A DNA stretch of 63,192 bases, filler included, from Stramenopiles sp. TOSAG23-2 (GCA_900128395.1; 7 parts of 7 records of this genome joined end to end with filler, not necessarily neighbours in it), one strand, 5' to 3'; shown: positions 27,729-57,322, counted from the first letter of the whole stretch. Program-made: numbers and translations. Notes: a model not told the origin generated them from the sequence alone.

Positions 27729-28808
27729 ATGAATACGTTTGATGAAGTAACTTCCAATATGGAAACGGTATTGAAAAAACGTCCAGCAAATGATACAACA
27801 ACAGGGACGAATATGTCGAATACTAACATGGATGAAAATACAAATGGTGACAACTTTGAAGGGGAGAAAATGGTGAGTCTGAAGCATTTAAAGAAAGCAA
27901 AAATTGATAGGCGTAGCCGTGGACGTTCTTCCAATATTCATAGTCGTAGTGGCAATAGCCCTGAAATACCAGCTGAATTTAACAAAAAGAAAATGTTAAA
28001 GAAAATATCTGCACAAGTAACACGTGTCAATTCATCCGATTCTCATGATTCTGCATTAAGCAATGTATCTGGTGGATCTGGCGCATTGAGTTCAAAATAC
28101 AACAAACTTCAGAAAAAATACCAAGATTTGAAAAATCTACGGTATACAGAGCCAGAACGTATATTGAATAGCTTGAAAGAAAAATATGAACAACGTGAAA
28201 GTAACTATAAGGAAAGGATTGAAACATGGGCTGCTAGAGCATCTGAGTTAAAAAGTCGTCTTCAACAATTAGAAGGGCATGGGGAAGATTATGGTCAAAC
28301 GAATAATGTAGAACAATTGAAAGTTAAAATTAAAAAATTAACTTCTAGATTATCAAAAGTTGAAAAAGAAAGAGATGATGTTTTAAATACTTTAAATGCA
28401 CAAAGTCATGACTTTAACAGTAACAATAGTGATAGTAATAATAATTCAAATAGTGGTTTAGGTGGTCTATTTCGTCACATGGGCAATAACAATAACAACA
28501 ATAATAGCAAAATACAAGAAGAAATGAAAAAAACTAATCGTCTATATGAGACATTGACATCTATATCAATTATTTATCAAGAAAATAGCGATACATTTTT
28601 ATGCCAAGGTGTTGATGCTAAAACGAATGATATATTGAAATTTGAATTGAGTTTTGGAATCTCAGAGGAAGATACAAATGAAATGGTGATGTCATATTTA
28701 CCAATACAAAACGTTCATAGCTTACCAGAACATTTACAAGATGAAATTGAATTCAATGTTGTACATGCACATAATTTCTTCAATACAATATTTACACATA
28801 TCAAATAA
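27729..28808 (+). CDS. CSM1: Monopolin subunit Csm1/Pcs1-like
   Basis: Coiled coil (YQDLKNLRYTEPE) and RWD-like C-terminus LYETLTSISI...LKFELSF...YLP...LPEHLQDEIEF...FF. Confidence 0.7.
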   Translation: MNTFDEVTSNMETVLKKRPANDTTTGTNMSNTNMDENTNGDNFEGEKMVSLKHLKKAKIDRRSRGRSSNIHSRSGNSPEIPAEFNKKKMLKKISAQVTRVNSSDSHDSALSNVSGGSGALSSKYNKLQKKYQDLKNLRYTEPERILNSLKEKYEQRESNYKERIETWAARASELKSRLQQLEGHGEDYGQTNNVEQLKVKIKKLTSRLSKVEKERDDVLNTLNAQSHDFNSNNSDSNNNSNSGLGGLFRHMGNNNNNNNSKIQEEMKKTNRLYETLTSISIIYQENSDTFLCQGVDAKTNDILKFELSFGISEEDTNEMVMSYLPIQNVHSLPEHLQDEIEFNVVHAHNFFNTIFTHIK

Positions 28809-31649: not shown

Positions 31650-33428
31650 TCAACCTGTTAAAGTTTTAGTAAATTTCTTGTTCAGGTATTTGCGAGAATT
31701 GGCTTCATTTTCTAACATCATTGCTTTAAATTCTTCCATATCGATCTTTCCATCATTATTCTTATCAAATCGTTCTAATATATCTTGTGATGTTGCATCA
31801 TCGATTCCACCTAATGCCACTTTAATTTCAGCTAATTCTAAAGCTTCACTATGATCTCTATCCAATTTATGGAAGGCTTGCTCCATTCGTTCAGCAGTTG
31901 CCCAATGTTTTATTTCCATTGTACCAGCTATAAATTCTGAATATCCAATTTCACCATCACCATCAATATCTAACGTATTAATTAAAGTTGCAAAATCTTC
32001 ATCAAGTTCCTCTGCACTTTTATTATTTGATTTTGTAATGTGTGAATGAAGGACAACTTTCAATTCATCAGCTGTTAAAACACCATTACCATCTGTATCA
32101 GCTGCTTTAAATGCGTCTAATAAGGCATTAATATCTTTATCTGGCAGTGATTCAGCAATCATACGCTTCGCAATACGTTTAAATTTGTCATGTCCAGTAA
32201 ATTTACGTAAGCGCTCGAACAATGCGCGATTTAATGGCTCCGGTTTAGGTGGACCAACGCTAACGATCCATGGATGCTTCAATGCTTCTTTAGCTGAAAG
32301 CCGTTGTTTAGGATCTAATACTAAAAATTGACGTATCATATTAATTGCACCAGAAGAAATTTGACTCCACTCGTCTCGGGGGAAGAATTCTTCATACTCA
32401 GTCCACTTTCCCCCTGTGCCAGGCGTTGATCTTGATGCAGCATTTTTCGTTGAAGAGCTTGCTAACCATTGTTCAATTTCACTGTCAAATTTTTTTGGTA
32501 AACCTTTTGTAATTCTTTCATAAATTTCTCCATCATCATCACCATAAAATGGTGGATAACCGCACAATAAGATGTACATTATAACCCCCATACTCCAACA
32601 ATCACACTCTAAGTCGTAATTTTTCGCTAAAACTTCTGGTGCCATGTAATACGGCGTCCCTGCTCGCAATTGAAAATGTTCCCCAAATTTGTGATGATCT
32701 GCCAAACCAAAATCAATCATTTTGATTTGTGGAAAGACATCCCCTGCTTTACGATTTTTTGACAAAGGACGTGATAATAGAAAATTTTCAGGCTTTAAAT
32801 CACGGTGTACAACATCATGTTCATGACAATGGCCCAGTGCTTCTAACGCCATCCTCATAATAGCTGCTGCATCTTTTTCGCTAAATGCACCTTCTCCAGC
32901 TCCAATAACGGCATCGAACAATTCACCACCAGTACACATTTCTTGTGATATGTATAAATGTGTGTTTGTTTCCATAATTTCATAAATACGTATAATACCT
33001 GGATGGTGCATTTCCTTTAATATATTGACTTCTTTTCTTAAAGAATCCATTGAATTTGAACTATGATTTGATGAACATAAAATTTTCTTCAAGGCACATA
33101 TGTAATCTTTTTGTATATTTCGCGCTTTGTAAACCGTACCAAAGTTACCCGTGCCAAGTTCAGAACCTTTCCCAAACTTGTCGATTTTAGTCTCTGAAGT
33201 TTTTTGAAGTGGTTCGTAATATTCTTCAATAGATTTAATGGTCCATCCAGTTAAGCTGGTTCTACGTGTACTTTTTCTTGCTGTAGCGGCATTTAAAGTC
33301 GATTGCGCGGACCTTTGCGAAACATATTGGCGTTTCTTACCTGATGACGAATTTTGTCTTGAGCCTGGTCCAACTGGATTCCCCGTTGGTATTTGCTCCT
33401 GTGGATCAGATGATTGTGCACATCCCAT
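31650..33428 (-). CDS. CDPK: Calcium-dependent protein kinase
   Basis: MGC acylation motif, full kinase domain, junction, four EF loops (DTDGNGVLTADE, DIDGDGEIGYSE, DRDHSEALELAE, DKNNDGKIDMEE). Confidence 0.95.
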   Translation of the reverse strand: MGCAQSSDPQEQIPTGNPVGPGSRQNSSSGKKRQYVSQRSAQSTLNAATARKSTRRTSLTGWTIKSIEEYYEPLQKTSETKIDKFGKGSELGTGNFGTVYKARNIQKDYICALKKILCSSNHSSNSMDSLRKEVNILKEMHHPGIIRIYEIMETNTHLYISQEMCTGGELFDAVIGAGEGAFSEKDAAAIMRMALEALGHCHEHDVVHRDLKPENFLLSRPLSKNRKAGDVFPQIKMIDFGLADHHKFGEHFQLRAGTPYYMAPEVLAKNYDLECDCWSMGVIMYILLCGYPPFYGDDDGEIYERITKGLPKKFDSEIEQWLASSSTKNAASRSTPGTGGKWTEYEEFFPRDEWSQISSGAINMIRQFLVLDPKQRLSAKEALKHPWIVSVGPPKPEPLNRALFERLRKFTGHDKFKRIAKRMIAESLPDKDINALLDAFKAADTDGNGVLTADELKVVLHSHITKSNNKSAEELDEDFATLINTLDIDGDGEIGYSEFIAGTMEIKHWATAERMEQAFHKLDRDHSEALELAEIKVALGGIDDATSQDILERFDKNNDGKIDMEEFKAMMLENEANSRKYLNKKFTKTLTG

Positions 33429-36604: not shown

Positions 36605-38431
36605 ATGTTTTCTACTTTCAATCAACAAAGGTTGATGCGAAGCAATAATGGACGTATCAAACAAAAATCTTTGATACTTTTCAACGCAGTTTACATTGTA
36701 TTTATTTTATGCGTTATTAACTTAAAACAACATTCTTTTTTATTAGTTACTGGTTATACGGTTGATCGAGAACCAAATATAATTGAGTCCTATAAAAGTA
36801 AAATATATTTTGCAGCGGAAACGCCAGTAACTGGTACTGAACTATTTGTGTCTGATGGAACATACTCGGGTACATCGATTTTTGCAGATATTTCTAATGG
36901 AACGATAAGTAGCTTTCCAAAATATCTAGTTGTATATGATAATATACTTTATTTTTCGGCTGATAATGGAGCTGTTGGTAGAGAACTATGGCGTACTGAC
37001 GGTACAAATGGGGGAACATTCATGGTGAAGGATATATGCACCGGTCCGGGTAGTAGTGATCCAAGTAATTTTACCATTTTTAAAGATAGGTTATATTTCG
37101 CCGCTGATGATTGCGAACATGGTCGAGAATTATGGCATTTGTACCAAAATGGCACAAAATTAGAAGTAAAAATGTATAAAGATGTACAGCCTGGACTGGC
37201 AAGTTCTAACCCCCATAATTTTGGTGTGCTGGTTAAAGAAGGGGACGGTACAACAACAAATCCTAGGATTGAATTTAAAATGTACTTTGCAGCAAATACA
37301 ACGCTACATATTTATCCCAATAAAACATGGACTAGTACAACCAGTGCTCCTTCCGGAGATGGAGATGGAACAGGAAGAAGAAGACTAGAAGAAAGTGACA
37401 ATGCAACGACAACAACAACAACAAATTCGGCGACTACAACTAATGCACCAAATAATACTTATGTATCCACAACAAGTGACGCCTCCAATAGCAATTTAAC
37501 AACGACAACGCCACCAGAAGATATTCCTGATGAGGTGAGCAATTTAACAACGACATCACCACCAGAAAATATTCCTGGTGAGGTGCCTATGCCACCAGAC
37601 AATTCGATCATGGAATTTGAGGATAGTGATTCGCTGGAGTATAACATAAGTCATTTAGGTGTTGAATTATGGGAAACCACTGGGGAAGATGGTGTTGAAA
37701 GTGCGACTTCACTTGCTTTAGACATAAATGAAGGTTCTGAAGGTAGTGAGCCGTCTGAAATGGTATGGTATTATGATAAATTGTATTTTGCTGCGTATAG
37801 AAATGGTGCAGGAAGCCAATTATGGAGGGTGCATATGCATCGTGATCATATATTTCTTGCTACTCAAAACACACCTTGCTGTCATAAAATTGAAACTGTA
37901 GTAGCTGGAGTGTCTCGCGCATGTCCAGGGCCACCATTTGTTGAATACGACGAGTTAACTGGCTATCCTTCTGGATCTTGTGCGTATCTTGAAGAGCTCA
38001 TCGATTCAGGTACAAAATCTTACTCTTCAACATCTGACGATTTTATAATTGAAATGGTGACTAGAATTGGACCTCCCCCAGAAGGTGCAAATGCATTTAT
38101 GCTTACAATTTTGGAAGATGTACTTTATTTTGGTACCCAATATGAAGACGATACAAAGTTATATGAAGTACAAAGGAAAGTCGCCCCATTTGAAGCAGCC
38201 TCAGGGGTTATGACAGCTGATGATGTTGTTGCAAGAGTTATAGAATCAGAAGATGAATTTGGCTTTGAAATTGTTGATGCTATCTTAGGAGGTGTTTATA
38301 ATAGATATCAAGGCCATAGAAATACAGAAAATAAACCAATTATTAAGTGGCACGGTTATTCGTCGTATCCAATAAACTATCAAAAAGTTTGGTTAAATAA
38401 ACTTGCAATGGGTGAACAATTGGATCCCTGA
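36605..38431 (+). CDS. Secreted ELWxxDGT-repeat protein with Thr/Pro-rich linker
   Basis: N-terminal hydrophobic segment; repeats GTELFVSDGT, GRELWRTDGT, GRELWHL, GVELWETTG with LYFAA cores; RRRLE motif; Thr-rich stalk. Confidence 0.88.
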   Translation: MFSTFNQQRLMRSNNGRIKQKSLILFNAVYIVFILCVINLKQHSFLLVTGYTVDREPNIIESYKSKIYFAAETPVTGTELFVSDGTYSGTSIFADISNGTISSFPKYLVVYDNILYFSADNGAVGRELWRTDGTNGGTFMVKDICTGPGSSDPSNFTIFKDRLYFAADDCEHGRELWHLYQNGTKLEVKMYKDVQPGLASSNPHNFGVLVKEGDGTTTNPRIEFKMYFAANTTLHIYPNKTWTSTTSAPSGDGDGTGRRRLEESDNATTTTTTNSATTTNAPNNTYVSTTSDASNSNLTTTTPPEDIPDEVSNLTTTSPPENIPGEVPMPPDNSIMEFEDSDSLEYNISHLGVELWETTGEDGVESATSLALDINEGSEGSEPSEMVWYYDKLYFAAYRNGAGSQLWRVHMHRDHIFLATQNTPCCHKIETVVAGVSRACPGPPFVEYDELTGYPSGSCAYLEELIDSGTKSYSSTSDDFIIEMVTRIGPPPEGANAFMLTILEDVLYFGTQYEDDTKLYEVQRKVAPFEAASGVMTADDVVARVIESEDEFGFEIVDAILGGVYNRYQGHRNTENKPIIKWHGYSSYPINYQKVWLNKLAMGEQLDP

Positions 38432-38722: not shown

Positions 38723-41700
38723 TCAATCTGTTTTAGACGCATCTCTTCTATTTGTTTCATCTGCTGTATCCTTTTTTGCTTTAATAGCTGTCTCGTTGTT
38801 TTCTTCCTTTTCTACTTTCAATTTGTCAGTATTTTCAGTGTCGCTTCTCTTGACTTTGTTGTTTTCTGTATCAGGTAATGTAGAGCTAGGATCATTTAGT
38901 ACTTTCACTTCTTTTAATGGTACAACTTTATTTAATATCATCCTCTTCATTTTTCGTTTATGTATGAATATTACTATAACCCAAACAAGCAACCAACCGA
39001 TTATTAATGTCGTCCAGGTTAATAAACTATTATTGCTGGTCAAGTTATACATTATTGCACATGCACAAGCATGTGTTGCGCATACGTATACAGCAGTTCT
39101 AAAGATGTTTAAGCGCTTGATCATGCACGGTTGTATATATTGATTGGAGACGGAAAGGGTCAAACAAATTAAAAATTGTGGAACTAATACTTTTTCCCAA
39201 TCTTCCTGATAAAAAATAGAAAATCCAGCCATTAACAATTCTGCTTGATGTTCCATAATTAAAAAACTTTGATCGTATTTAATGTCTAAAGCTTTGTTAT
39301 TAAATTGAAAATTGGGGGCAAGCAAAGTTGCAAGTGGGTAGAAACCTAATAATCCTAAAGCAGCAACAAACATATAGATAATTTGAAGTGGTTCCGAAAA
39401 TGTAAAACATTTCATTTGATCATCAGCCATCAATACAAATTCTTTACTACCCTTATCATATGTACAAGCATATGTTGATATTAAAGTAAACATCATGCCA
39501 AAGTATAGATAATCATTTACAGCATTGAGACCAAAATTATACATCCCGTCTTTTGTGCAGCACTTTGTGATTGGTCTACCATTTTTGTCCAGTCCGAGGC
39601 GTCCTTTTTGCAATGCTTTTAATCCTTTTATGGAGTAAAACGGGAAAGCAATTGCTATGACAATGGAAAACCAAAAAAAGTAGTGAAACGAGTTGCCAAA
39701 CTCCTCCGGTAATTTAAATTGAGGAATGTAAATGAGTAAATCAACAAGCCTCATTAACCAAGGAGTTTCCTGCAGCTGTTGCTTTAGTTGTTCTCTAGAT
39801 GATTCCTCAACTAATTCTGTCGTGTTTGATATTTTTTCCGATGTCTCTGCAAGTGGGCCGTTAGTTAAAGCAACACTAATGTATTGATATGCTGTAACCA
39901 TCATTCCTACATAAAATGTCAAAATATTATCCCACATGTTCCAGTTAACTACTTGCTCCGATTCATCAAGTTTTTTTAATTTTTTTATTTCTACTGAAAT
40001 TTCTTTTTCTAGCACTGGGTAAATTTTATCTACTACTGTCGGCCATTCTACTCTACACATATTTATTTCCTTAATTAATAAAGAACATTTCTCTTCTTCG
40101 CTCACTTCTTTTGTTACTTTCATACCTTTACCACTCTTATTTATGGCATTATTATCGCCGTTTGTATCTTTTTCTCCCACTCCTTCGAGTTTCTTTTCCT
40201 TACTCTTTCCTTCCATATGTTTTTCATCTTCATCACTGTCTTGTATATTGGCATCAATCGGAACAAGCAAATGTTTAATACACGAGAATGCATTTGGAAT
40301 ATGAACTTGCTTATCCCCGTTGCTTTTCTCTTCCTCCTTGTTGTCTTCATCATCGCTGTCATCGTCTGCCTTTGCATTCATTAGCTCCATCAACTGTTTA
40401 TTCAATTGTTTTTCCGGGTATTGTTCTCGTAAAAACTGACGATGCCGATACCATCTTTGTAATATTTTCACAGCGCGTATTCTTCGTTGGCGCCTACGCC
40501 ACCACCGTTGGATAAAACTGGCAGCCCATGTTGACATATGTGATTTGTGCGCTACATGGCGGGGATCTTCAATTTTAAAAGAACTTTTAGATTGGATTCG
40601 CAGTCCATGAATTTTTCGCCAACGTGTATACATGGGAAGGCACGTATGTAAATTTTCGTCAATTAGTAGCTGCAACGCATCGTGCAAGGGCATGGAGGAG
40701 TTTATGCGTTTAGCAATTACGCTTATTATTTCGCAGAATTGCTCGTAGTTAATATAATTGTTTAAGATGCGTTTCTTTCCACCCTGATGGTGTTCTTTTG
40801 CAAATTGCTTTGCTTTCTCGGTAAATAATTTTGCTGGGAAATATTCTCTGGTCATAGAATCAGCAACAAATTTATCAAATTGTTTTTGTGACATTTTTCC
40901 ATTATCAATGACAGTTGTAGATTTCTTCACGACTATATCGTCAGAATTTTCTTCTTTCTTTTGTAATCCACGTATCCATTCATGTTTCGCAGATTTTGCA
41001 TTTTGGTCTACTTGCATTTGTAGCTGCTTCATTTGAGATTGAAAGCTTAATTGGTGGATTACAACTTTCGATACTCGCCGCTTTTTGCTATATACTTCTA
41101 TTTTTAGCGTGGAATAATGTGTAAATATTTCTTTCAAAACTCGCAAGCGAATTGTTTTCGGGGGCAATGAATGTTTTTTCCAACGTACAAAATGTACTTT
41201 AAGAAAATCTGCATTATATTGGGAATGTAAAATATGGACAGCTTTTTGTTTCTCTATCAATTTACATGCTAATCCAACTTCAAAACGCTGTGAATCAGAC
41301 AATACCATAGGCACATGAACATATTCATTCCCTCTTGAAAACCGACCAAGCTTGTGACCTTCAACATAATTTGAAGCTAAGATGCAAGATTTGCCATTTT
41401 TTGTGCCCATCACATTGATTATTAATTTACTCTGTTTACATGCCCACCAACGAAGAAACAGAAATTCATTTACCCAGCATAAATTGTTTAGATCAGAAAC
41501 CTTTCTGGTTTGCTTTCCAAATCTTTTCCGTACCTTTTTCTTATCCATGGAATATTTTGAACCAATCATCGGGCTAAGATAAATGTGGCAGCTGAGGGGT
41601 GTTAAGTGATTTAAATCTGTAAACCCAGCATCATCTAATCCTTTTATATCTACTACTTGCACCCGAAATACACATCCGTTGTATAACTGTTCCTTTTTAC

Positions 41701-44700
41701 TTTCAACACCATTATTGATTGTGCGACTATTATTAACAATTTTCTTCATCAGAGCCCCTGTCATTAGTAAATCAGATGTTTTTTTCATGCTTTCTTTCCT
41801 TACAACATCGTCTATGGCACTATTTGCACGATCGAATAAATGCCTTATGGATCTTAAACCTTCTAAAATATAATTGAAAAATCCTGCTTCCGATGTATGA
41901 ACATCTAAGCTATTCATAGCGACTTTTAGACCTTGTGCCATAGCCTTATTTTTTGGAAAATAAGATATTCCTTTCTTATATGTCTCTACTGTTTCTTTCC
42001 ATCTTTTCAAGCCTGCAAGACATGTGGCTTTTGCTAAATATGCTTCTGCCAATTTTGGGTTTAAACTTACAGATTCCGTTGCATCTAGCAATGATTCTTT
42101 CATCCTATAAAGCTGAAGTAATACCATTGAACGTCGGCAATAATAATCGGCGTTAGATTCATCTTCTTTAATTAAAGCAGTTAATCCTTCATACGCTTCA
42201 TCATAACTTTTCCTTGATATTTGCTCTAAGCATTTCCTGTATTTTAATTTCCGCTGCTGTCTTAAATGTCTCTCTTTTTCTAAACGATCTAATTCAAACT
42301 TTCTATTCATTTTTTGCAGTGCGTCATTTTGCGCTTTTCTTTGTGCAATTTCTTTTTTTTGCAAAAGCAATTGTGCTAGCAAACATGCTTTGCATAGCTT
42401 CTTCCTTCGTTGAATATGGACCTTCCAACCTTTTTTATCGCAATTTGGGCATAACTTATATAATCTGTTAGCAAGTTCTTCCTTCAGCGTTATTGCATCA
42501 ATTAAATGAAGTTCTTTTTTTCGTTGCAATCGTTGAAGGAATCTTTCTGATTTAATATCTTGTTCAAATTTTTCCCACTCATGCTTTCTCTCAAATGCTT
42601 CGTCATATAAAGCGCGTGCAACATCTGTATTCATGCAATAGTTATGCTTTGTTGCAACAGCAACTAGTTTTAAAGTTGCAGCTTTTGCTTTTCTTTCTTT
42701 TTGTATTGTATTAAACGTACTATTAACACCTATAGTAAAACTTGAAACATCAAGCAAGCAAATGAGAGCTAAAAGACTTACAGTAAACAGTAGTAGTGTA
42801 GCGTATGTTTCGTTCGATTTCCAATTTGTTGAAAGTATACTAGGCAATACAACACCAAAAGGTACAAATACTCCAATACAACAAAATGCAGATAAAACAG
42901 ACATTGTGCTTTGCGAATCCGGGTGCAAATGGATACACATACTGATTAAGCGTAATAATATATATATACCAAACATTCCTGGTATAATTATGGTCAACGT
43001 AAGTCCAATACTAGATAAGCTGTTTGTTTCAGAAACATGTCCAATTGCGAATATAATAGCCCCTGTGATAGCAATCATAGAGATACAAATTTTCAACGGC
43101 AGAGAATGTTTCTCCATTACTTTTACAGTATCGCCACGATTATTAAGTATATATATAATTGGCGCGATGCAGAAAATTATATAAATTGCATACGAGCTAT
43201 CTTCATTTGATATATATTTTTCAGTAATCAGAAGAAATATTAAAGAACATAACATTAATATATGTGATATCCAGTTAGCAATGTTCGACATGTTATTATT
43301 TTGCTTGTCATTTCTTGAATTCATCTCAGAGATTGCTTTTTTCGCTATCCGCTTGACACGTGTATAAAGCTCATGATAATGCGTATATACAGTAATTAAT
43401 GTCGAAAAAAGAGGCAATGTAATCAATAGTAAGATGCACGCGATATTCAGCATTGGTGCATTGTTATTTTCGCGAAATCCCAAGTATATTGGTAAGATTG
43501 CTCCAAATGGTAAAAAGCATCCTGATATTGCTAAATTGACTAACGTTGGCAATTGAAATACGGAAATAGCTGACAATTTTGGAACTAATGTCAATATAAT
43601 TGATGATGCTGGTATAGCTACTGCAAGAAAAATGTATAGTCTGGAGTCGATATTATTTAAATTATTTTCTTGGTCAAAGACAATTATCAAAGGTATTACG
43701 ACACCAAAAACGCACGAAAAAACAAACTTATCGACAAAACGCACTTTCCATAATTGGAAATAAAAGGTAGAAAGCAAAATGGTTGGAATCAATACTAGTA
43801 TGATGCATTCTAATGTATATTCTTTGCCTTCCTCGTATTTCGTTTGAAGAGCAAACATGACCGTCAGCATCACGCAAGCATTCGATGCTACTAGGAATAA
43901 ACATTTATACGGTTCCTTGTAATGTATAAGATTCAAAAAATATAGTTTACTAAACAATATCCAACAAGCACCAAGAAGCATGCAAAACGGTAAAAATATC
44001 AATCCAGATAAATTTGATGTCACTGAATCTTCATAACCAACTAATAAAAGACTCAAAGGTAAAGCGCATAGACCATGGTATATAAAACATAGCAATATCC
44101 GGAATTCCATTGATGTTTTCCATTTCTTCAATACATAATTCAAATCATAATGCTCCCAGCAAAGTGCTTGAATTCCAAACAATACAAATAAAATTATAAA
44201 TCTTAAATTTGATGGATAAATTGGATACATTGACAGTGGGATAACAAAAAACATTAAATAGATTGAAAGTGGTATTACATGTCTCCCACAAATTGATTTG
44301 ATTTTCGGTCTTGATACTGTTGATAATAAATACATCAAAACCATAGTTCCAACAACTAAAAGAGAAACCATTTCATTTTCTTCATTCCCACTTGGCTTCG
44401 GAATGATCAATAAACAATAGATTAGCACTGATGCTGGTATTGCCATGAAAATTGTATAAATAACGGCAAACGTAATTCCCAACGTAACACGATCCTTTGG
44501 CCAATATATACTCATTAGTACTAGAATTAATACCAAGTGAAAAGCTGTTATACTTGTACATAACAGATATAAAATTGAAACTGTATCTTGACTATATGAA
44601 TACATTAATGAAATGGGAATGCTACCAGGTATTGCAAGTATGATAATAATTATTTTTTGGAGTTCTGCTGCTTGCTGGAACATAAATTTGCTATACGATA

Positions 44701-46660
44701 AACGTATAGTGCACAACCACAATATGCCAAGCACAAGAGTTACATGGAAATATGTTAGCACTGCCTCAGGAATTACTATTTTTTTCGTATCATTGTATCG
44801 AATCCAATATAATGAAATAAAAGGGGTTGGTATAACGACTGTTAAGATATATAATCCAGTAATGCCTAATCGCTCTTTTGGACTAAATTTCCATGTGTTT
44901 ATTTTTTCATGAAATAAAGCTGACCATGTAAAATATAACGTACCAAGAATTGTAAATACAATTGCGATATTTGTGTGCATATTATTATCGTTATTGTTCA
45001 AAATGCCTATAGATGCAGCAGGCAAAACAAAACAAATATGGTAGATGATAAAATCGGACAATTTATTCCATTTTGATTGTTTTGCCCATGCAATATTGCT
45101 CAAAAATATCAAATGGAATAATAAATGACCAATTCCAATTATTAATAAAAACAATAGGAAATATATTGTTTCAACACTTTGCTTGACATCGTCTCCTAAT
45201 AAAAGTGTTCGGAAACTTTTTGAAAGATTCAAAGTTATTAGTAATGGAACTGTATAACTAATGAACACTGTATACGTAATTGTAGGAATCATCCATATCT
45301 TTTTGAAATATTTTCTATCTTCCGGTTCTATATTGTACAAAGTTGTTTTTCGCCTAATTGGTTGATCTACAGGAGATTTATTATCGGTATTCCTGTTTCG
45401 TTGTTGTGACTTTTTTTGCTTGTTCCTTATTTTTGTTAAATGTTGTTTATGAAAATTCAGTTTAACTACTACAATAGATAACCAAATGCAAAACATTAAG
45501 CCAAATATAAACATGCTGAAAAAAATACCAAAAAAGCGATTGTCCTGTAATGTACTTAATATTGGAAGTGGCAGTAAAAAGGGTAATGGGATTACAATGC
45601 AACATATATAGAATAGGAAAAGAATCCAACGATTTTTCCAAATAAAATATTTCTTTACCTCCTTTCTTTGAATCGTATAAAGCCCCAGTAATACTACAAT
45701 GCCGAGAACTATAAAAATGATTAAAATTTGTATTGTAATGTCATTACTACTATTATTATTATTACCATCCTTTTGGTCAAACAGTATCAAACCACCGATA
45801 TGACTTACAGGGTAGATAATTGTAGCACAGATTATTATAGAACTTGTGATCATTAAAAGTAACTTTCTCTTTTTATGAAGTGAATCTTTACTATTCAGAA
45901 GCTTGCTATTACGATATGTATGTATATCCGAGTATATTCGACATAATGACAATGAACTTGTAAAAAAAATCGTAAATATAAATGTGAATAAATTTTCGAT
46001 TGCATCTTTCATATTCGAAATCATCAAAGATATGAACAATAACGCAAACGGAACGGCAACAAATATGGCAATAAAACACCATGAGACCATTTTTATTCTT
46101 TTATACGTATTCATCTTGACATCTTTAAAAATTGAATTACTTTGAGCAGTCCAAGCTGACATGATAGTACCGACTAAACATGATGATAACAATCCACCTA
46201 TACTGACATTGTTGTATCCACCATTACTTGCGTAGATTGGGAAAATAGCACCAAACTGGGAGAAAAAACAAGTGTAAAATAAAATCAAAATTATTTTCGA
46301 TTCATATAAATTATTTGTATTGAGCGTATATCTAATAAATGTCAACAAAAGAGCGCTGGGCACCGTAAATGCCATTCCTGTAATTGGTATAATTATCGGA
46401 ATTGCTGATGCGTCATTGTCGTCAACGCTATGATGAATTAGCAAAAGAAAAATTCCGAACGTAATAATAAATAAAAAGCTAATTGCAATAAATATCAAAT
46501 GTATAGTTGATATAAGTCTTAAATAGACTGCATTCTTCTCTTTATTATTTCTTTGACTTTCCGTATATGCTAATATGTGCTCCTCGACATAGTTATCTTC
46601 TGAGGATATCGAAGATGTATCTGCAGACGAGTTTTCATCTTCCTCTTGAATTATCTTCAT
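38723..46660 (-). CDS. 2645-aa polytopic membrane protein (TM array, CxxC pair, TPR, C2-like, IQ, C-terminal ~7TM)
   Basis: Single uninterrupted ORF. Many hydrophobic segments in the first ~1300 aa; TPRs (ADYYCRRSMVLLQL, AEAYLAKATCL); IQ-like AASFIQRWWRRR and AVKILQRWYRHR. Confidence 0.85.
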   Translation of the reverse strand: MKIIQEEDENSSADTSSISSEDNYVEEHILAYTESQRNNKEKNAVYLRLISTIHLIFIAISFLFIITFGIFLLLIHHSVDDNDASAIPIIIPITGMAFTVPSALLLTFIRYTLNTNNLYESKIILILFYTCFFSQFGAIFPIYASNGGYNNVSIGGLLSSCLVGTIMSAWTAQSNSIFKDVKMNTYKRIKMVSWCFIAIFVAVPFALLFISLMISNMKDAIENLFTFIFTIFFTSSLSLCRIYSDIHTYRNSKLLNSKDSLHKKRKLLLMITSSIIICATIIYPVSHIGGLILFDQKDGNNNNSSNDITIQILIIFIVLGIVVLLGLYTIQRKEVKKYFIWKNRWILFLFYICCIVIPLPFLLPLPILSTLQDNRFFGIFFSMFIFGLMFCIWLSIVVVKLNFHKQHLTKIRNKQKKSQQRNRNTDNKSPVDQPIRRKTTLYNIEPEDRKYFKKIWMIPTITYTVFISYTVPLLITLNLSKSFRTLLLGDDVKQSVETIYFLLFLLIIGIGHLLFHLIFLSNIAWAKQSKWNKLSDFIIYHICFVLPAASIGILNNNDNNMHTNIAIVFTILGTLYFTWSALFHEKINTWKFSPKERLGITGLYILTVVIPTPFISLYWIRYNDTKKIVIPEAVLTYFHVTLVLGILWLCTIRLSYSKFMFQQAAELQKIIIIILAIPGSIPISLMYSYSQDTVSILYLLCTSITAFHLVLILVLMSIYWPKDRVTLGITFAVIYTIFMAIPASVLIYCLLIIPKPSGNEENEMVSLLVVGTMVLMYLLSTVSRPKIKSICGRHVIPLSIYLMFFVIPLSMYPIYPSNLRFIILFVLFGIQALCWEHYDLNYVLKKWKTSMEFRILLCFIYHGLCALPLSLLLVGYEDSVTSNLSGLIFLPFCMLLGACWILFSKLYFLNLIHYKEPYKCLFLVASNACVMLTVMFALQTKYEEGKEYTLECIILVLIPTILLSTFYFQLWKVRFVDKFVFSCVFGVVIPLIIVFDQENNLNNIDSRLYIFLAVAIPASSIILTLVPKLSAISVFQLPTLVNLAISGCFLPFGAILPIYLGFRENNNAPMLNIACILLLITLPLFSTLITVYTHYHELYTRVKRIAKKAISEMNSRNDKQNNNMSNIANWISHILMLCSLIFLLITEKYISNEDSSYAIYIIFCIAPIIYILNNRGDTVKVMEKHSLPLKICISMIAITGAIIFAIGHVSETNSLSSIGLTLTIIIPGMFGIYILLRLISMCIHLHPDSQSTMSVLSAFCCIGVFVPFGVVLPSILSTNWKSNETYATLLLFTVSLLALICLLDVSSFTIGVNSTFNTIQKERKAKAATLKLVAVATKHNYCMNTDVARALYDEAFERKHEWEKFEQDIKSERFLQRLQRKKELHLIDAITLKEELANRLYKLCPNCDKKGWKVHIQRRKKLCKACLLAQLLLQKKEIAQRKAQNDALQKMNRKFELDRLEKERHLRQQRKLKYRKCLEQISRKSYDEAYEGLTALIKEDESNADYYCRRSMVLLQLYRMKESLLDATESVSLNPKLAEAYLAKATCLAGLKRWKETVETYKKGISYFPKNKAMAQGLKVAMNSLDVHTSEAGFFNYILEGLRSIRHLFDRANSAIDDVVRKESMKKTSDLLMTGALMKKIVNNSRTINNGVESKKEQLYNGCVFRVQVVDIKGLDDAGFTDLNHLTPLSCHIYLSPMIGSKYSMDKKKVRKRFGKQTRKVSDLNNLCWVNEFLFLRWWACKQSKLIINVMGTKNGKSCILASNYVEGHKLGRFSRGNEYVHVPMVLSDSQRFEVGLACKLIEKQKAVHILHSQYNADFLKVHFVRWKKHSLPPKTIRLRVLKEIFTHYSTLKIEVYSKKRRVSKVVIHQLSFQSQMKQLQMQVDQNAKSAKHEWIRGLQKKEENSDDIVVKKSTTVIDNGKMSQKQFDKFVADSMTREYFPAKLFTEKAKQFAKEHHQGGKKRILNNYINYEQFCEIISVIAKRINSSMPLHDALQLLIDENLHTCLPMYTRWRKIHGLRIQSKSSFKIEDPRHVAHKSHMSTWAASFIQRWWRRRQRRIRAVKILQRWYRHRQFLREQYPEKQLNKQLMELMNAKADDDSDDEDNKEEEKSNGDKQVHIPNAFSCIKHLLVPIDANIQDSDEDEKHMEGKSKEKKLEGVGEKDTNGDNNAINKSGKGMKVTKEVSEEEKCSLLIKEINMCRVEWPTVVDKIYPVLEKEISVEIKKLKKLDESEQVVNWNMWDNILTFYVGMMVTAYQYISVALTNGPLAETSEKISNTTELVEESSREQLKQQLQETPWLMRLVDLLIYIPQFKLPEEFGNSFHYFFWFSIVIAIAFPFYSIKGLKALQKGRLGLDKNGRPITKCCTKDGMYNFGLNAVNDYLYFGMMFTLISTYACTYDKGSKEFVLMADDQMKCFTFSEPLQIIYMFVAALGLLGFYPLATLLAPNFQFNNKALDIKYDQSFLIMEHQAELLMAGFSIFYQEDWEKVLVPQFLICLTLSVSNQYIQPCMIKRLNIFRTAVYVCATHACACAIMYNLTSNNSLLTWTTLIIGWLLVWVIVIFIHKRKMKRMILNKVVPLKEVKVLNDPSSTLPDTENNKVKRSDTENTDKLKVEKEENNETAIKAKKDTADETNRRDASKTD

Positions 46661-51958: not shown

Positions 51959-54900
51959 CTATTCAAAATCATCTGCATATTCTTTATCAGAATCTTCAAA
52001 ATCATCATCATCATAATCACCATTTTCATTATCATTGAAATAATTTACATCTTCCAAGTCTTCCAAAGCATCATCTTTTTCAAAGTTAGATATCATCTTT
52101 TCCAACCTTTGGATCTCCGCTTCCTCCTTGTTTTTTGGATTTATCATAGCATCGTCACTATCATCATCTTTTAGCTCTAAATTTTCCAATTTTTTTAATT
52201 CTTGTTGCAACATCAGTAATTCTTGTTCATCATCATCTTTCTCTTCGATTACAGTTTCTGCTTTTTTTTTTCCTTCCTTGACTACCATCTTCTTCGTTTT
52301 CTTCTTCTTCTCCTCCTCCTCAATAATATCCATTACTTCTTCTTTTTGTTCACTTTCTACTTTTCTTGTTCGAGCAGAAGAATTTACATGTTTCGAAATA
52401 ACAGTAACAAATTCTTCATATTCAATAATTTGGTTGTCATTTAAACCGATTTCCTTTAAAAAGCTTTTGGCCTGTGATGCTGGTATTCTCATAGCTAGTA
52501 AACATTGTAAAAAATCGTCTTTGTCAACTGTACCTGAACCATCAAAATCAAAAGATTTGAATATTTCATCTAGAGCTTTTTGAATTGCATTCATTTCTGG
52601 TAAATTAGTCATACTTTCATTGTATGTATGTTTTGCATAATGAAGCGCAATTTTTTCAATTGATTGTGTAAATTTATTTACATCAACTTTCGCTACTTGA
52701 ACTTGATTCTCACTTTCAAACTGATCATTATCATAATTTTCCGCTTCGAATGTATCATTACTGCTGGAACTATTACTTTCACTATCGCTACTATCATTAT
52801 GTTTGACACGAAGGTTTCCACCACAAAGATTGATAAAAACAGGATAAGAAATTTTTCCACTTTTTTCTGCTTCAAATCGTCGAAGAATATCATCAATATC
52901 ATTATCACTTAGTTCCAGCCAGGTATCATTTAAAACAGATCGAAATTCCTCTTTTGTAATTAAACCATTGTCATTGAAATCATATCGCTTGAATGCAACT
53001 TCAAAATCTTTTTCACAGTCCATTGATACTGCGCGTGCATAATTTTTTCTTAGTTTTCTAACAGTAGTCATATCACCATTCCATCTGACATCTTGTCTGT
53101 CGTTAAATATGAATCGTAAAAATTCATTGTAATCAACTTCACCATCACCATCATAATCAAAACGTTCGCCAAATATGTTAATTTCACTTTCTGTCAATCC
53201 AGTGCCCCAACGCATCATTGCTTCGCGAAATTCAGTAATGTCAATAGTACCTTCTCCATCTTTATCCATGCCATTAAATAAACTTTGCACATTCTTCAAC
53301 CCGTCATCATTGCTAAAACCATTCATATGATCGCCGTCTTCATTTTCATTGATAATACGCCTCAACGTTTTTCTTACTTTCTCAGCTGCTTGCATGGAAA
53401 TACCCAGATCACTATGTTGTATGCTTGCACTATCCGTACAAAATCTTAAAAATGCACGATAATTAATCGTTCCATTACCATCCTTATCAAATCTACTTAA
53501 CAAGGAATTTTCCACGTCTTTGCTAATTTTAAAATCAATATCATTTAACACTTTTGCAAATTCCCCTCGTGTAACAGTGCCACTTCTGTCATCATCAATA
53601 ATTTCAAATATTTCTCTAAAATCAGATGCATTTCCAGAGTTAATGACCTCAATGAATATTTTTTTTAATTTTGTAGCAGTGGCGGAGACACGAAATTCCA
53701 ACTCAACTTGCTTTTGCCTTTCAGTAAGATTGTTGTTATTTTTCGGGGAAGCGTTATTTTCAATTTCTTCATCAGTTTCTTTCTTATTATCATCGGTATG
53801 TTTTGTATTATTGTTATTACTACTACCACGTGGTTTTGCTGATTCGGGTAATATTTCCGTTCCATAAACAAAATATAACAATTCTCTATAATCTACACTT
53901 TGGTATCCATTCACATCTAATTTATGGACAAACCAATCAATTTGTGCAGCATTAATTTCTTCAACACCTTTCACCATATCGATCGACGTTTTTAAATGTT
54001 CTAAGGAAATTGTACCATTGTTTTCTATTTTACTAGCTTCTTGTGCAAATGAACCTGAAGCAATTGCTTGTTTCAACAATTCTTTCAATTTAGCATCAAG
54101 TTTTTTTTCATCCATTTCAATATTATTGTTATTGTTGCTTAAATGAGTACCTCGAATCATGTTTGGGCTATTCTTCTCAACAAATTGATTATCAAAATTA
54201 TCTTGACTTTGCATAGCAAGCATCAATTTCTTTTCCTCTTCTTCTCGTTGATTTGAAGCTGCAACTTTCATTGCTTCAATAGCTGTCAATCTTACTGGTT
54301 CGCCATTTTTTTTCTCCTTCTTCTTGCTTGTATCTTTTTCATTATTTTCAACTCCAGTTGAAAAGTTGACATTAGTTTGCTGTGAACCCAATGGTGTCCC
54401 AACACTCGTCATATCATGTCCATTTTCTCTTAAACTATTTTCCATTTCCTTTGCAATCGTTTTTCTTCTATCGTCATCTTCTTTCTCCGCTTTCATCGCT
54501 TGGAGTCTATCTTGGCGTCTTTTTTCAGATTGTTGAATGACATCTGATTCCAGTTTACGACGCTTTTCCAACAAAGCTCGTCTTCTATTTAAAACTGCTT
54601 GATGATCCTCGAGATACTCTTTCTCCACCGGGGATTCAACATTATTTCTTGTTGTTGGTGCTTCCTGAGTTTTCATCTTAGATGGCGGGGGCTGTGGCGA
54701 AAATTTTAACTTTTTTGTGGTATTCACTTTACTTGCATTTTGTTTTCTACCTCTTCTTGAATGCCCAATACTCGAAACTGGGCGAGACGTTTGAATATCG
54801 TTAACGTTATTTTTATTATTATTATTATTATTACTACTACTACTAGTAGTAGTAGTAGTAGTATGATGATGAGACTGTTTTAATATTGATGATTTGTTCT

Positions 54901-57322
54901 TCTTCTTTATTTTTTTATTACTACTACTATTACGGATGGAAGAAGAAGTTGTTGCTGTCTTTATTGTATCGTTCATAATATTATCACTTTCGTGCATCAT
55001 AGTGCTATTTACTGTGATTATCATGTTTGTATTTTCTGTAATAGGTTTCCGTTCCGGTGATAATGGCATTTCTAGCTCTTTTTCTTTCATTTCAAGATTT
55101 AATTTCTTATTTTGCAATTGTAAACGACGTACAGTAGCATCCAAAGTCGAAACTTGGGCATTTTGAACCCTCAGTTGCTCTTGTTGAGCACGTACAATAG
55201 CTTCTAATTCTTCGTTTAAATAGTGATTATCACTATTTGTAGCATGGGCATTTTGTGTAGTTCTCAAATCATGTGGATTAAAATTATCAATTGGAGGGTC
55301 CATCAGACAATCCAATAAAATGTTGTAATATATTAACTCATTTGAAATATTTGAGCTTATGTTTAACTCATGAATTAAATTTTGTATATCATTTGGCGAT
55401 ATATTATGATCCAAAGTTTGCAACGATTGCAAAAGTCCATTAACACTAACGAGGGAATTATTTGCAGAAATAGTACTGCCATCAATATTATCATTATTAT
55501 TATTGTCATTTGTTGGCTCTTCGCATATAACAAGTAGTGCCTGTAAATCATCGACTGCTACTGCGTATGGAACCTTTCGTTCTGCAGCGACAGATTGTAA
55601 TGATTGTATAATTTTTGTTAACCACGGTAATGTATTATTGTTTTTTCTATTTGAATTTTTTTTTTTCTTTGAGATTTTTGATGTACGATTTTTTATTCTA
55701 CTAGCGCTATATTGCGTTGATTTTTTCTTTTTCACACCATTTTTTTTATTATTTATACGAGAGGCAAGTGTATCTTGTAATTCATGGACTAGATCCGTCA
55801 AACGCTGATTTTCTTTTAATACATGAGTTCTTTGTACTTTCAGTACACGAATCGTATCTTTAAACTCATTTACATATCCATTTGCATCTCTATCCATTCC
55901 ATTTTCCAAATTATTATTTCCTATTGATGGTGGTGAATTGACTCGGTAATCAAGCATTTCTTTCAAGCGTGTAACTTCCAATTTACATTCTTCTAATTCG
56001 ATTAATGTTTCTTTCAACTTAACACCGCGTTGTTCGCGTTTTAAATCGTGTAATTCCTTGTTTTTTTTCTTAAGATTGTCTGTTAATGCGTACACCTGCC
56101 TTTGTAATCTAGCGACTAATTTTGCATTTGACGTGTCAACAATTGAAGGTGCATTATTATTGTTATTTCCATGGCCACCATTGCCATTATCACCACCAGC
56201 CTCTCTTGTTAATGCAGCTGTAATTGCAGCAGCAGCTTTACCTAATGTCGTTTCAACTTGTTCATCTTTTTTCTTTGCTTGGCGTTCTAAACGTGCAACT
56301 TTTGTTTTCATTAATTTTAATTCCTCCTCTGCTTTTGTAGCAATACGTTTTAATTGTATCAATTTCATATATTGTTCCTCTTTTTCCATTTTATCCCATG
56401 GGCCTTTTCTTTTCCTTCTAGACCTTGGGGTTCTTCCACCACCACTAATGTTATGCATGGATTTAGAACGAGGTGTTCTATTATTAATACCACCACTGTT
56501 GCTATTTCTATGATTATTGTTACTATTAACGTTACTACTGCCACCATATACATGAAGAATTGAACCATTTGCCGTCAATAAACGTGCAGGCATTTCCCCA
56601 ACGCCATATTGACTGCTGATATTATTACTATTATTATTTTCACCTTTTAACCAACTATAACTATCTCCTCGTTGAACTTTTTTATTTTTTCTCTTGTTGT
56701 TATCTCTCGATGGTATACGTGGTTTTGCACTACTTGGACGTTTAAAACGCCGGCGAGTGGTATTAGCTGTGCCAGGACGATGCACTACTCGACGCCTTGA
56801 ACCAACACCGCTATTATTATTAACAGGCGTTGCTGCACGCTTATTACTCGCTTTATTAGAGTTATTACCACGAGCATGTGATGCACTTTTTGGCCTACGC
56901 GACGATTTACCTGGTCGTCTAGGTTGGGTTATGTTACTAATACTTGGTTTTGAACTTGATTGGTCGTTGTTTTTCCTCTTGTAAACTTGCCGTCCGTGAT
57001 TGTTCTCGCCATTGCTCTTGTTATTATTAGTATTATTATTATTTATTTGCTCTAACTTATCGTTTAATATATTTGTACATGTTTTCGTTTTTATATCAAA
57101 TGTCCAACCTTCATTATTTTTACTGGTAAATTCTATTGTATTACCTTCTACATTAAAATGACATGTACGCGCTTTTACAAATAAGTCATCTTGGCCAGAC
57201 CATATGCATTCGCTTGTACTGGTTATAAATAAAGACAAAATACCTTTTCTATCGTTTAATACTGCACGTAATGTTTTATCAGCGGATAAAAATATTTGCT
57301 CTGGGTGATCTGACTCTTCCAT
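51959..57322 (-). CDS. Large coiled-coil, multi-EF-hand protein
   Basis: EF loops DDDRSGTVTRGE, DKDGNGTINY, DKDGEGTIDITE, DYDGDGEVDYNE, DFNDNGLITKEE, DFDGSGTVDKDD; N-terminal coiled coils. Confidence 0.88.
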   Translation of the reverse strand: MEESDHPEQIFLSADKTLRAVLNDRKGILSLFITSTSECIWSGQDDLFVKARTCHFNVEGNTIEFTSKNNEGWTFDIKTKTCTNILNDKLEQINNNNTNNNKSNGENNHGRQVYKRKNNDQSSSKPSISNITQPRRPGKSSRRPKSASHARGNNSNKASNKRAATPVNNNSGVGSRRRVVHRPGTANTTRRRFKRPSSAKPRIPSRDNNKRKNKKVQRGDSYSWLKGENNNSNNISSQYGVGEMPARLLTANGSILHVYGGSSNVNSNNNHRNSNSGGINNRTPRSKSMHNISGGGRTPRSRRKRKGPWDKMEKEEQYMKLIQLKRIATKAEEELKLMKTKVARLERQAKKKDEQVETTLGKAAAAITAALTREAGGDNGNGGHGNNNNNAPSIVDTSNAKLVARLQRQVYALTDNLKKKNKELHDLKREQRGVKLKETLIELEECKLEVTRLKEMLDYRVNSPPSIGNNNLENGMDRDANGYVNEFKDTIRVLKVQRTHVLKENQRLTDLVHELQDTLASRINNKKNGVKKKKSTQYSASRIKNRTSKISKKKKNSNRKNNNTLPWLTKIIQSLQSVAAERKVPYAVAVDDLQALLVICEEPTNDNNNNDNIDGSTISANNSLVSVNGLLQSLQTLDHNISPNDIQNLIHELNISSNISNELIYYNILLDCLMDPPIDNFNPHDLRTTQNAHATNSDNHYLNEELEAIVRAQQEQLRVQNAQVSTLDATVRRLQLQNKKLNLEMKEKELEMPLSPERKPITENTNMIITVNSTMMHESDNIMNDTIKTATTSSSIRNSSSNKKIKKKNKSSILKQSHHHTTTTTTSSSSNNNNNNKNNVNDIQTSRPVSSIGHSRRGRKQNASKVNTTKKLKFSPQPPPSKMKTQEAPTTRNNVESPVEKEYLEDHQAVLNRRRALLEKRRKLESDVIQQSEKRRQDRLQAMKAEKEDDDRRKTIAKEMENSLRENGHDMTSVGTPLGSQQTNVNFSTGVENNEKDTSKKKEKKNGEPVRLTAIEAMKVAASNQREEEEKKLMLAMQSQDNFDNQFVEKNSPNMIRGTHLSNNNNNIEMDEKKLDAKLKELLKQAIASGSFAQEASKIENNGTISLEHLKTSIDMVKGVEEINAAQIDWFVHKLDVNGYQSVDYRELLYFVYGTEILPESAKPRGSSNNNNTKHTDDNKKETDEEIENNASPKNNNNLTERQKQVELEFRVSATATKLKKIFIEVINSGNASDFREIFEIIDDDRSGTVTRGEFAKVLNDIDFKISKDVENSLLSRFDKDGNGTINYRAFLRFCTDSASIQHSDLGISMQAAEKVRKTLRRIINENEDGDHMNGFSNDDGLKNVQSLFNGMDKDGEGTIDITEFREAMMRWGTGLTESEINIFGERFDYDGDGEVDYNEFLRFIFNDRQDVRWNGDMTTVRKLRKNYARAVSMDCEKDFEVAFKRYDFNDNGLITKEEFRSVLNDTWLELSDNDIDDILRRFEAEKSGKISYPVFINLCGGNLRVKHNDSSDSESNSSSSNDTFEAENYDNDQFESENQVQVAKVDVNKFTQSIEKIALHYAKHTYNESMTNLPEMNAIQKALDEIFKSFDFDGSGTVDKDDFLQCLLAMRIPASQAKSFLKEIGLNDNQIIEYEEFVTVISKHVNSSARTRKVESEQKEEVMDIIEEEEKKKKTKKMVVKEGKKKAETVIEEKDDDEQELLMLQQELKKLENLELKDDDSDDAMINPKNKEEAEIQRLEKMISNFEKDDALEDLEDVNYFNDNENGDYDDDDFEDSDKEYADDFE

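Follow-up and report, generated by a model that had tools for sequence, protein, structure and literature searches.

What kind of protein is encoded by a gene whose product, 2645 amino acids (aa) long, carries membrane-embedded parts on either side of a large central region and resembles no characterized family over its full length? The question is raised by P0001, a gene in a 63,192-nucleotide stretch of DNA from Stramenopiles sp. TOSAG23-2 (GCA_900128395.1). This whole stretch, referred to here as the window, consists of contigs strung together with filler, and P0001 sits on one of them, G000:C1813. A preliminary description of the window had found no characterized full-length family for this protein, which still holds, as does most of its view of the domains. 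What it missed was the repeat nature of the N-terminal membrane array, the spread of the family over several eukaryotic supergroups, and the remote kinship of the eight-helix C-terminal block with PF06011 (Pkd2/Flc-type) proteins.

38723..46660, minus strand: whole open reading frame (ORF) of P0001, 2645 aa, on contig G000:C1813

We tentatively propose that P0001 is a stretch- or tension-responsive, Ca2+-permeable channel or sensor of a rebuilt Pkd2/Flc (PF06011-like) kind, and we would give this proposal somewhat less than an even chance of being right.

The C-terminal block and the PF06011 module

38942..39934, minus strand: C-terminal eight-helix block, by predicted model and profile-profile comparison a remote homolog of helices 2 to 9 of the PF06011-type module
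39407..39466, minus strand: Cys2399/Cys2418 pair in a predicted outer loop, invariant in alignment A6 and aligned with the C...L..D...C loop of PF06011-type proteins
38726..38941, minus strand: basic, then charged C-terminal tail, predicted from the topology to be cytosolic

A model of the C-terminal block predicted from 116 sequences (predicted local distance difference test [pLDDT] 91, predicted template modeling score 0.85) shows eight helices of membrane length, together with a small beta-hairpin loop that carries the cysteine pair, which may form a disulfide. With eight helices, the C terminus would be cytosolic, as is predicted for the region that precedes the block. Conserved polar residues (N2245, T2445, N2450, Q2452, Q2472, and N2518) cluster in helices 4, 5, and 7.

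The genome contains at least 25 PF06011 matches (L047-L066 among the loci), 12 of them over the cut-off. It also gave one 18S rRNA match (L046), with a putative MAST-4 probe target at positions 2446-2463, and the organism is presumably a MAST-4 stramenopile. MAST-4 is an uncultured bacterivorous flagellate. We compared the block, profile to profile, with 19 of 25 PF06011 matches of this genome, used in place of fungal sequences, and obtained a match of 96.9% probability (E 1.8e-10, score 82.8, 158 columns). Controls scored far lower, at 17.5 for the reversed sequence, at most 29.4 for 12 block shuffles, and at most 24.0 for five array windows, with probabilities of at most 8.6%. A second alignment (94.9%) extends in order over 260 columns, beginning at the KI..G..Q helix, which is the second of the module, and ending at the last helix, and the outer-loop cysteine pair and a late proline motif also align between the block and the PF06011-type proteins. 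Since the profile match runs in order from the second helix to the last, the block is, by profile comparison, a remote homolog of helices 2 to 9 of the module, without helix 1. In the Atlas, there was a weak match to a cluster with PF06011 on 25% of its members (score 0.90).

The N-terminal array and a candidate first helix

46496..46660, minus strand: acidic N-terminal tail, residues 1-55, without a signal-peptide-like hydrophobic stretch; predicted to be cytosolic
42746..46495, minus strand: N-terminal membrane array, residues 56-1305, about 36 predicted helices (hydropathy scan with hand additions)
46184..46471, minus strand: repeat-profile match, residues 64-159 (E 2e-3, first-pass search)
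45464..45778, minus strand: repeat-profile match, residues 295-399 (E 8e-4)
43415..43717, minus strand: repeat-profile match, residues 982-1082, with the PFG..LP helix (E 5e-3)
42596..42901, minus strand: last helix pair of the array, transmembrane helices (TM) 35 (CC..PFG..P) and 36, with the extension N..F...E.E..AK, predicted to be cytosolic; a candidate for helix 1 of the Pkd2/Flc-type module

A hydropathy scan of residues 56-1305 gave 34 segments, and the count became 36 after two weaker segments were added by hand and one was shifted by four residues. Odd helices were followed on average by 0.9 Lys and Arg residues and even helices by 3.9 (14 of 18 pairs; P = 5e-6), a P value that is partly circular because of the hand additions, although the parity of helices 12-36 is unchanged when these additions are omitted. 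This bias places the N terminus and the hub in the cytosol. N-glycosylation sequons had no outside bias (4 versus 3) and were uninformative for topology. In total, P0001 is predicted to have about 44 membrane helices (36 + 8). Two membrane modules on either side of a cytosolic hub had been described before, and both the topology analysis and the block model agree with that layout; the accompanying counts of about 30 hydrophobic segments and about seven C-terminal helices were too low.

The array is repetitive. With a profile of its last unit, 12 of 34 proteins showed additional copies at E < 0.01, mostly 215 to 245 residues apart, with a best E value of 4e-11 in P0084 and values of 8e-4, 2e-3, and 5e-3 in P0001 itself (all computed for 34 sequences). 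Only the first pass was used because iterations 2 and 3 drifted onto the helices of the C-terminal block. Reversed sequences gave zero matches to the repeat profile, and a BLAST self-comparison of P0001 found no internal repeat, which is thus visible by profile only. The unit is about 230 aa long and has about six helices, the last two being a PxGxxxP helix and one further helix; in P0001, the array is irregular in its middle part. Array length varies across the family from about 12 to 39 helices.

The last helix pair stands out from this array. In a predicted model of residues 915-1385 (pLDDT 81), which is all-helical, TM36 runs on into the cytosol as one 55-residue helix. Identity to four orthologs is 83, 55, 48, and 42% for TM35-36 with the extension versus 51, 21, 23, and 23% for TM25-34; the C-terminal block has 82, 52, 50, and 48%, and the rest of the array about 50 and 22%. 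TM35-36 thus matches the C-terminal block in conservation and has twice the conservation of the remaining array, and the extension motif is found family-wide. An even array puts TM36 in the outside-to-inside direction, which is that of helix 1 in the nine-helix module.

A proposed mechanism and what weighs against it

Fission-yeast Pkd2 is described as a protein of nine predicted helices whose Ig-like domain is extracellular (10.1101/2022.08.11.503631) and as letting calcium through on membrane stretch in vesicles (PMC9727806). In P0001, TM36 would serve as the missing helix 1 of such a module. If TM36 does complete the module, the 900-aa hub would be a giant insertion in its first cytosolic loop. 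The PF06011-type proteins L056, L062, L063, and L064 carry, by eye, EF-hand-like insertions just before module helix 2, so that loop appears to accept cytosolic domains. The repeat array would occupy the place of the soluble ectodomain in Pkd2 and in the CRMPs discussed below. By analogy with the Piezo blade only, it could sense membrane tension or curvature, and the 55-residue TM36 helix could transmit force to the core. A p25alpha-like domain in the hub may tie P0001 to flagellar or cortical microtubules, and TPPP-like proteins, to which this domain is related, are reported to be linked with cilia (PMC3498115). In the P0001 clade, calmodulin bound to IQ motifs might give feedback, while the TPR, C2, and zinc-knuckle elements might recruit partners.

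Several observations weigh against this proposal. There was no direct Pfam hit to PF06011 in P0001, in any of 16 block sequences (0/16), or in any of 29 long relatives (0/29); contig C1813 is not among the 25 PF06011 matches of the genome, and for the 116 C-block members the 25 families listed, out of 49, do not include PF06011. Identity in the profile match is 13 to 15%, so function need not be kept, and the template was made of MAST-4 PF06011-type proteins and not Pkd2 itself, which we take to belong to PF06011. TM36 showed no sequence match to module helix 1, of which the template held little. Two residues conserved in the family differ in P0001. Codon 2426 (39383-39385, minus strand) encodes Gln in P0001 and in its closest ortholog P0003 versus His in 95 of 105 family rows, and E2474 replaces the usual Lys. 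The genome already holds a Piezo and at least 25 PF06011-type genes, and the channel activity of Pkd2 rests, in the literature consulted here, on one paper (PMC9727806). Complex prediction for residues 1120-1400 with 2195-2575, which scored 0.00 in two runs in which alignments were not used and the partner fold was uncertain, speaks neither for nor against the proposal.

The cytosolic hub

42383..42451, minus strand: CxxC...CxxC zinc-knuckle-like pair, its four cysteines invariant in alignment A1 and found at the same place in 15 of 44 rows
42236..42382, minus strand: charged coiled-coil-like stretch, by eye
41891..42253, minus strand: about three putative TPR repeats (Pfam TPR_17 E 0.0047 and TPR_1 E 0.01, below cut-off)
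41243..41683, minus strand: C2-like domain (weak Atlas and PDB matches)
40625..40903, minus strand: truncated p25alpha (TPPP)-like helical domain, part of the family core (PDB matches and relative P0074)
40433..40534, minus strand: two IQ-like motifs, by pattern
40091..40384, minus strand: acidic, poorly conserved linker (14 to 37% identity in orthologs)

The motifs listed in the preliminary description are all where it placed them (CPNC at 42451, CKAC at 42394, FRVQVV at 41668, WVNEFLF at 41476, MSQKQF at 40894, INYEQF at 40753, the IQ-like motifs at 40513 and 40462, and ACTY at 39469). Its guesses of a zinc pair, TPR, C2, p25-like, and IQ elements each gained some support, although the TPR, C2, p25alpha, and IQ assignments are individually weak and none reaches the Pfam cut-off in P0001. 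The zinc-knuckle-like pair may bind metal. For the TPR repeats, ortholog P0006 matched TPR_2 at E 2.7e-5, also below cut-off, and Pfam IQ passed the cut-off in relatives P0058 and P0081 and not in P0001. The C2-like domain was matched by PF00168 in 26 of 30 Atlas hits (score 0.94, recognition being weak and under the mark of the tool), and 12 of 13 weak PDB hits were synaptotagmin-1 or NEDD4 (E 0.11-0.87).

Regulation by Ca2+ and calmodulin had also been suggested. We found no conserved aspartate column of the kind expected for Ca2+ ligands in the top loops of the C2-like domain in nine sequences, and no canonical EF-hand loop pattern in P0001. The C2-like domain is probably Ca2+ independent, and because it lacks conserved calcium ligands, only the IQ motifs point to calmodulin. 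Direct calcium binding by P0001 is thus unsupported by its sequence, while calmodulin binding through the IQ motifs is plausible.

Of the hub elements, only the p25alpha-like domain was matched throughout the family (in 35 of the 149 proteins listed, many of them in the training set). The evidence for PF05517 is weak but consistent, with nothing over cut-off. The top three of six PDB hits are TPPP-family proteins (E 0.076-0.78), relative P0074 has a Pfam p25-alpha match at E 0.0026, below cut-off, and a family profile built without P0074 matches it at E 4e-8. This family-wide match, the variable array length, and the reported link of TPPP-like proteins with cilia would fit a structural tether or scaffold, in which the array shapes or stiffens the membrane and the p25alpha-like domain binds tubulin, fixing flagellar or cortical membrane to microtubules. 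However, the C-terminal GxGxGxxGR part of the domain is missing (0 of 14 proteins), and identity in orthologs is lower for the domain (17 to 60%) than for the membrane core (48 to 82%), which argues that the core does the work. We consider a tether improbable on balance.

Family distribution and clade structure

Among 1.84 billion representatives, the C-block profile matched 537 at E <= 0.001 and 274 at 1e-10. The 150 proteins listed include 30 of at least 1000 aa, of which 25 have at least seven hydrophobic segments more than 350 residues upstream of the block; the other five have one such segment or none and may be cut short. Host names, looked up for 16 relatives, included Diphylleia rotans, Tetrahymena utriculariae, Pelagophyceae sp. 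CCMP2097, Telonema subtile, and Paramecium sonneborni, five taxa that are all flagellated or ciliated, a trait that favors the proposed sensor. Their proteins are annotated as hypothetical or transmembrane, with TPR protein as a further label in the family. The Tetrahymena and Paramecium orthologs are about 1500 to 1800 aa long. As a lead only, the Atlas gave unnamed clusters in which Oomycota, Preaxostyla, and Ciliophora are the phyla recorded most often. Pfam searches of 29 long members returned no family, only IQ, TPR, and one weak p25-alpha match. A search with the array for shorter proteins found only eight near-self fragments among the 8000 candidates scored, and one with the block alignment for longer proteins found seven while missing distant members of the profile search. 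Judged by titles and the starts of abstracts, full-text searches of the literature listed no description of the family; supplements such as ciliary proteome tables were outside this scope.

A tree of 42 block sequences, from which P0008 and P0137 were excluded, groups the 16 rows around P0001 in one clade (100/100), and only there did we find the zinc pair at its hub position and C2-profile hits; IQ-like patterns also occur in three proteins outside it. Because the zinc pair and C2 hits are confined to one clade, the family core is, by this comparison, the array, the p25alpha-like domain, and the C-terminal block. The zinc knuckle, TPR, and C2 elements, being so confined, are not family-defining. 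The deep branches of the tree are weak, so we draw no order of events.

Paralogs of P0001 in the genome lie on C1251, C1985, C1893, C8240, and, weakly, C6815. One paralog class (L011 on G000:C1251, L019, L021, L023, and L024) reaches about 3600 aa, with a coiled-coil stretch of about 800 residues inside the array. Paralogs P0007, P0009, L019, L021, L023, and L024 end in CPxC...CxxC...CGHxxCxxC, which is RING-like with the last cysteine pair placed first, and P0009 has partial Pfam RING matches.

These tails bear on a further explanation, an Flc-kind protein of the endoplasmic reticulum or another organelle that transports Ca2+, lipid, or a small molecule or else acts in membrane quality control, with the array as a scaffold and the RING-like tail of one paralog class as a ubiquitin ligase. 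Flc1 is described as a regulator of calcium homeostasis and flavin transport (PMC9600462), and the sequons without outside bias would suit such a protein. P0001 and its four orthologs, however, have no RING-like tail, and no transporter family was matched by sequence. To us, this explanation is slightly less probable even than the tether.

Gene integrity, transcripts, and neighboring genes

The ORF has 2645 codons from ATG to TGA, with zero internal stops and zero internal N. The fragmented assembly (9146 contigs), which includes the palindromic artifact C1893, and a size like that of Piezo raise the suspicion of an artifact or a known family, with two genes joined in frame as a chimera or with a divergent form of Piezo or DEK1. 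We regard this as hardly credible. Four orthologs are collinear with P0001 over its whole length (58, 33, 30, and 28% identity), and the two-block layout is shared by the 25 long relatives noted above. In three RNA runs from three studies, contigs cover the ORF with no joint listed; one spans 39261-43295 without a gap and another 40599-43765, bridging the array, hub, and C-terminal block. RNA libraries can contain DNA, so these contigs alone are no proof of a single transcript, and over the 5' third of the ORF RNA cover consists of separate pieces with holes. As the orthologs are collinear and RNA contigs bridge the junctions, P0001 is a real single intronless gene and a chimera is very unlikely. 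The intact frame and the RNA contigs agree with the intronless ORF and single protein reported in the preliminary description.

Five full-length copies in other collection entries have 99.4 to 99.6% identity over 2645 columns. DNA run X1 covered the ORF in scraps only. In 20 of the 24 runs listed (10 studies, the labeled ones marine or aquatic), at least half of the sampled words were found. Population variants gave no strong signal: of the 40 listed (19 more exist), 36 are single-site differences, comprising 16 synonymous and 20 nonsynonymous changes and no stops, and four at adjacent sites were excluded.

Some paralog loci need comment. The contig G000:C1893:1-11023, with L013 and L014, is its own reverse complement at 99.95%, an inverted-duplication artifact, and so its two family copies are one gene. 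The C1985 paralog has one phase-0 GT-AG intron at L012:5535-5650, and at about position 1460 of L012 a one-base difference from the near-identical L027, probably an assembly error, breaks the upstream frame. Loci L031-L045 had no single frame under genetic code tables 6 and 10 and look intron-bearing.

The neighbors of P0001 in the window are ordinary intron-poor eukaryotic genes. ORFs of 359 to 739 aa without a Pfam match at E 0.001 lie at 3590-5809 (minus), 6440-8578 (minus), 17195-19252 (plus), 19812-21143 (minus), 27729-28808 (plus), 36605-38431 (plus), and 58036-59757 (plus). A CDPK-like kinase with EF-hands (31650-33428, minus) and a 1787-aa multi-EF-hand protein (51959-57322, minus) are encoded on other contigs than P0001, and their nearness is therefore meaningless.

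Comparison with known proteins

PF06011 proteins (the 'TRP' family of Pkd2, fungal Flc, and the same-genome proteins) resemble P0001 in the ordered alignment of helices 2 to 9 and in a predicted cytosolic C terminus. They differ in that helix 1 is not adjacent in P0001, where the candidate lies about 940 residues upstream, and in that P0001 has the 36-helix repeat array and the large hub in addition. We found neither a signal peptide nor an Ig/ML-like ectodomain, both PF06011 traits, in P0001; its N terminus is acidic, and the first hydrophobic segment begins at residue 56. Where PF06011-type proteins have their loop, P0001 has the motif YYPLATxxxPNFQFxxKxLDIK.

CRMPs (TgCRMPa/b, PfCRMP1-4, and those of Tetrahymena) are likewise described as large protist proteins that end in a multihelix block and a cytosolic tail (PMC9670195, PMC9815656). 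They have cysteine-rich EGF, MAR, or Kringle ectodomains, whereas the P0001 family has membrane repeats instead. The apicomplexan and ciliate CRMPs suggest another explanation, a nonconducting receptor or transducer in which a change of core shape signals through the hub, for instance to trigger prey capture or exocytosis; it might pair with another nine-helix paralog in a heterodimer. CRMPs of Toxoplasma and Plasmodium are reported to have nine helices, with the N terminus outside and the C terminus inside, and are read as exocytosis sensors (PMC9670195); their membrane domains are predicted to heterodimerize (PMC9815656). The hub of P0001 is rich in putative partner-binding modules, the genome holds at least five paralogs, and contigs C4860, C813, and C1505 each have DUF7630 and PF06011 matches, a CRMP-like layout. 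The membrane domain of CRMPs is presumably akin to PF06011. P0001 itself has no cysteine-rich ectodomain or signal peptide and therefore no obvious ligand-binding part; Pfam found no EGF, MAR, or Kringle match in P0001 or in 29 long relatives, and C1813 is not among the DUF7630 matches. We think such a receptor unlikely, though it deserves serious consideration.

P0001 is like Piezo in its size and in a long N-terminal repeated membrane array before a conserved C-terminal core, a likeness that we treat as analogy only. The P0001 repeat has about 230 aa and about six helices; the Piezo blade is made of four-helix units. We rejected an identity with Piezo since P0001 has no Piezo_cap (PF12166) match or PFEW-like motif. 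The single Piezo_cap match of the genome is a 2815-codon frame on C1378, another gene, in line with the earlier judgment that P0001 is not a Piezo.

DEK1-type transmembrane calpains also combine a large N-terminal multihelix array with cytosolic domains. They have no second membrane block and no detectable array similarity to P0001, which was rejected as a DEK1-type protein given the lack of a CysPc domain (PF00648) and profile scores at background. The repeat and block profiles were at background on the Piezo and on two DEK1-like proteins (best E 0.019). The genome has two such genes, L083 (G000:C1306) and L082 (G000:C1444); inspection by eye of the one with a 2742-aa product suggests a signal peptide, a WW-like end, and a C2-like segment within the N-terminal part.

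A canonical TRP or voltage-gated channel was rejected, as no Ion_trans-type Pfam match or filter motif was found. Compared with the seven-helix fold of G protein-coupled receptors and rhodopsins, the C-terminal block has eight predicted helices. Multidomain TPPP-like (short p25alpha) proteins of stramenopiles are described as combining one incomplete p25alpha domain with zinc-finger and IQ motifs, and the word 'transmembrane' is absent from the main text of that paper (PMC3498115); the P0001 domain, in contrast, lies between two membrane blocks.

Structure searches yielded no convincing match. With the C-block model, Foldseek returned no hit at E <= 0.001 (best E 1.3), and VIA wide gave a best Z of 8.3 over 111 of 401 residues (root mean square deviation [rmsd] 3.8), tied with unrelated bundles. 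With the model of residues 915-1385, the best Foldseek E value was 0.83 and the best VIA Z 8.2 over 97 residues (rmsd 3.9), and the 50 rows listed included no Piezo. Each model slightly exceeds the advised length of 400 residues, and the missing matches do not show a new fold. A PDB sequence search with the block profile had 0 hits at E <= 10.

Implications

At about 44 predicted helices, P0001 would be among the most membrane-rich single chains known to us; Piezo has 38. Its structure would show how a Pkd2/Flc-type module tolerates a 900-residue splitting loop. The family has no Pfam model and spans stramenopiles, ciliates, Telonema, and Diphylleia, a spread that suggests an origin early in eukaryote history. 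A bolder idea, which we think doubtful but worth pursuing, is that these proteins are ancient mechanosensors of flagellated and ciliated eukaryotes whose Piezo-like design arose independently, with a Pkd2-type core, a blade of six-helix repeats, variable in length, in place of the ectodomain, and a p25alpha-like microtubule anchor. If this were true, the family could supply one of the missing touch receptors of ciliates and of those for prey contact in marine nanoflagellates. Because Tetrahymena and Paramecium have orthologs and are open to routine knockouts, behavioral assays, and electrophysiology, the question of contact or stretch sensing is directly testable there.

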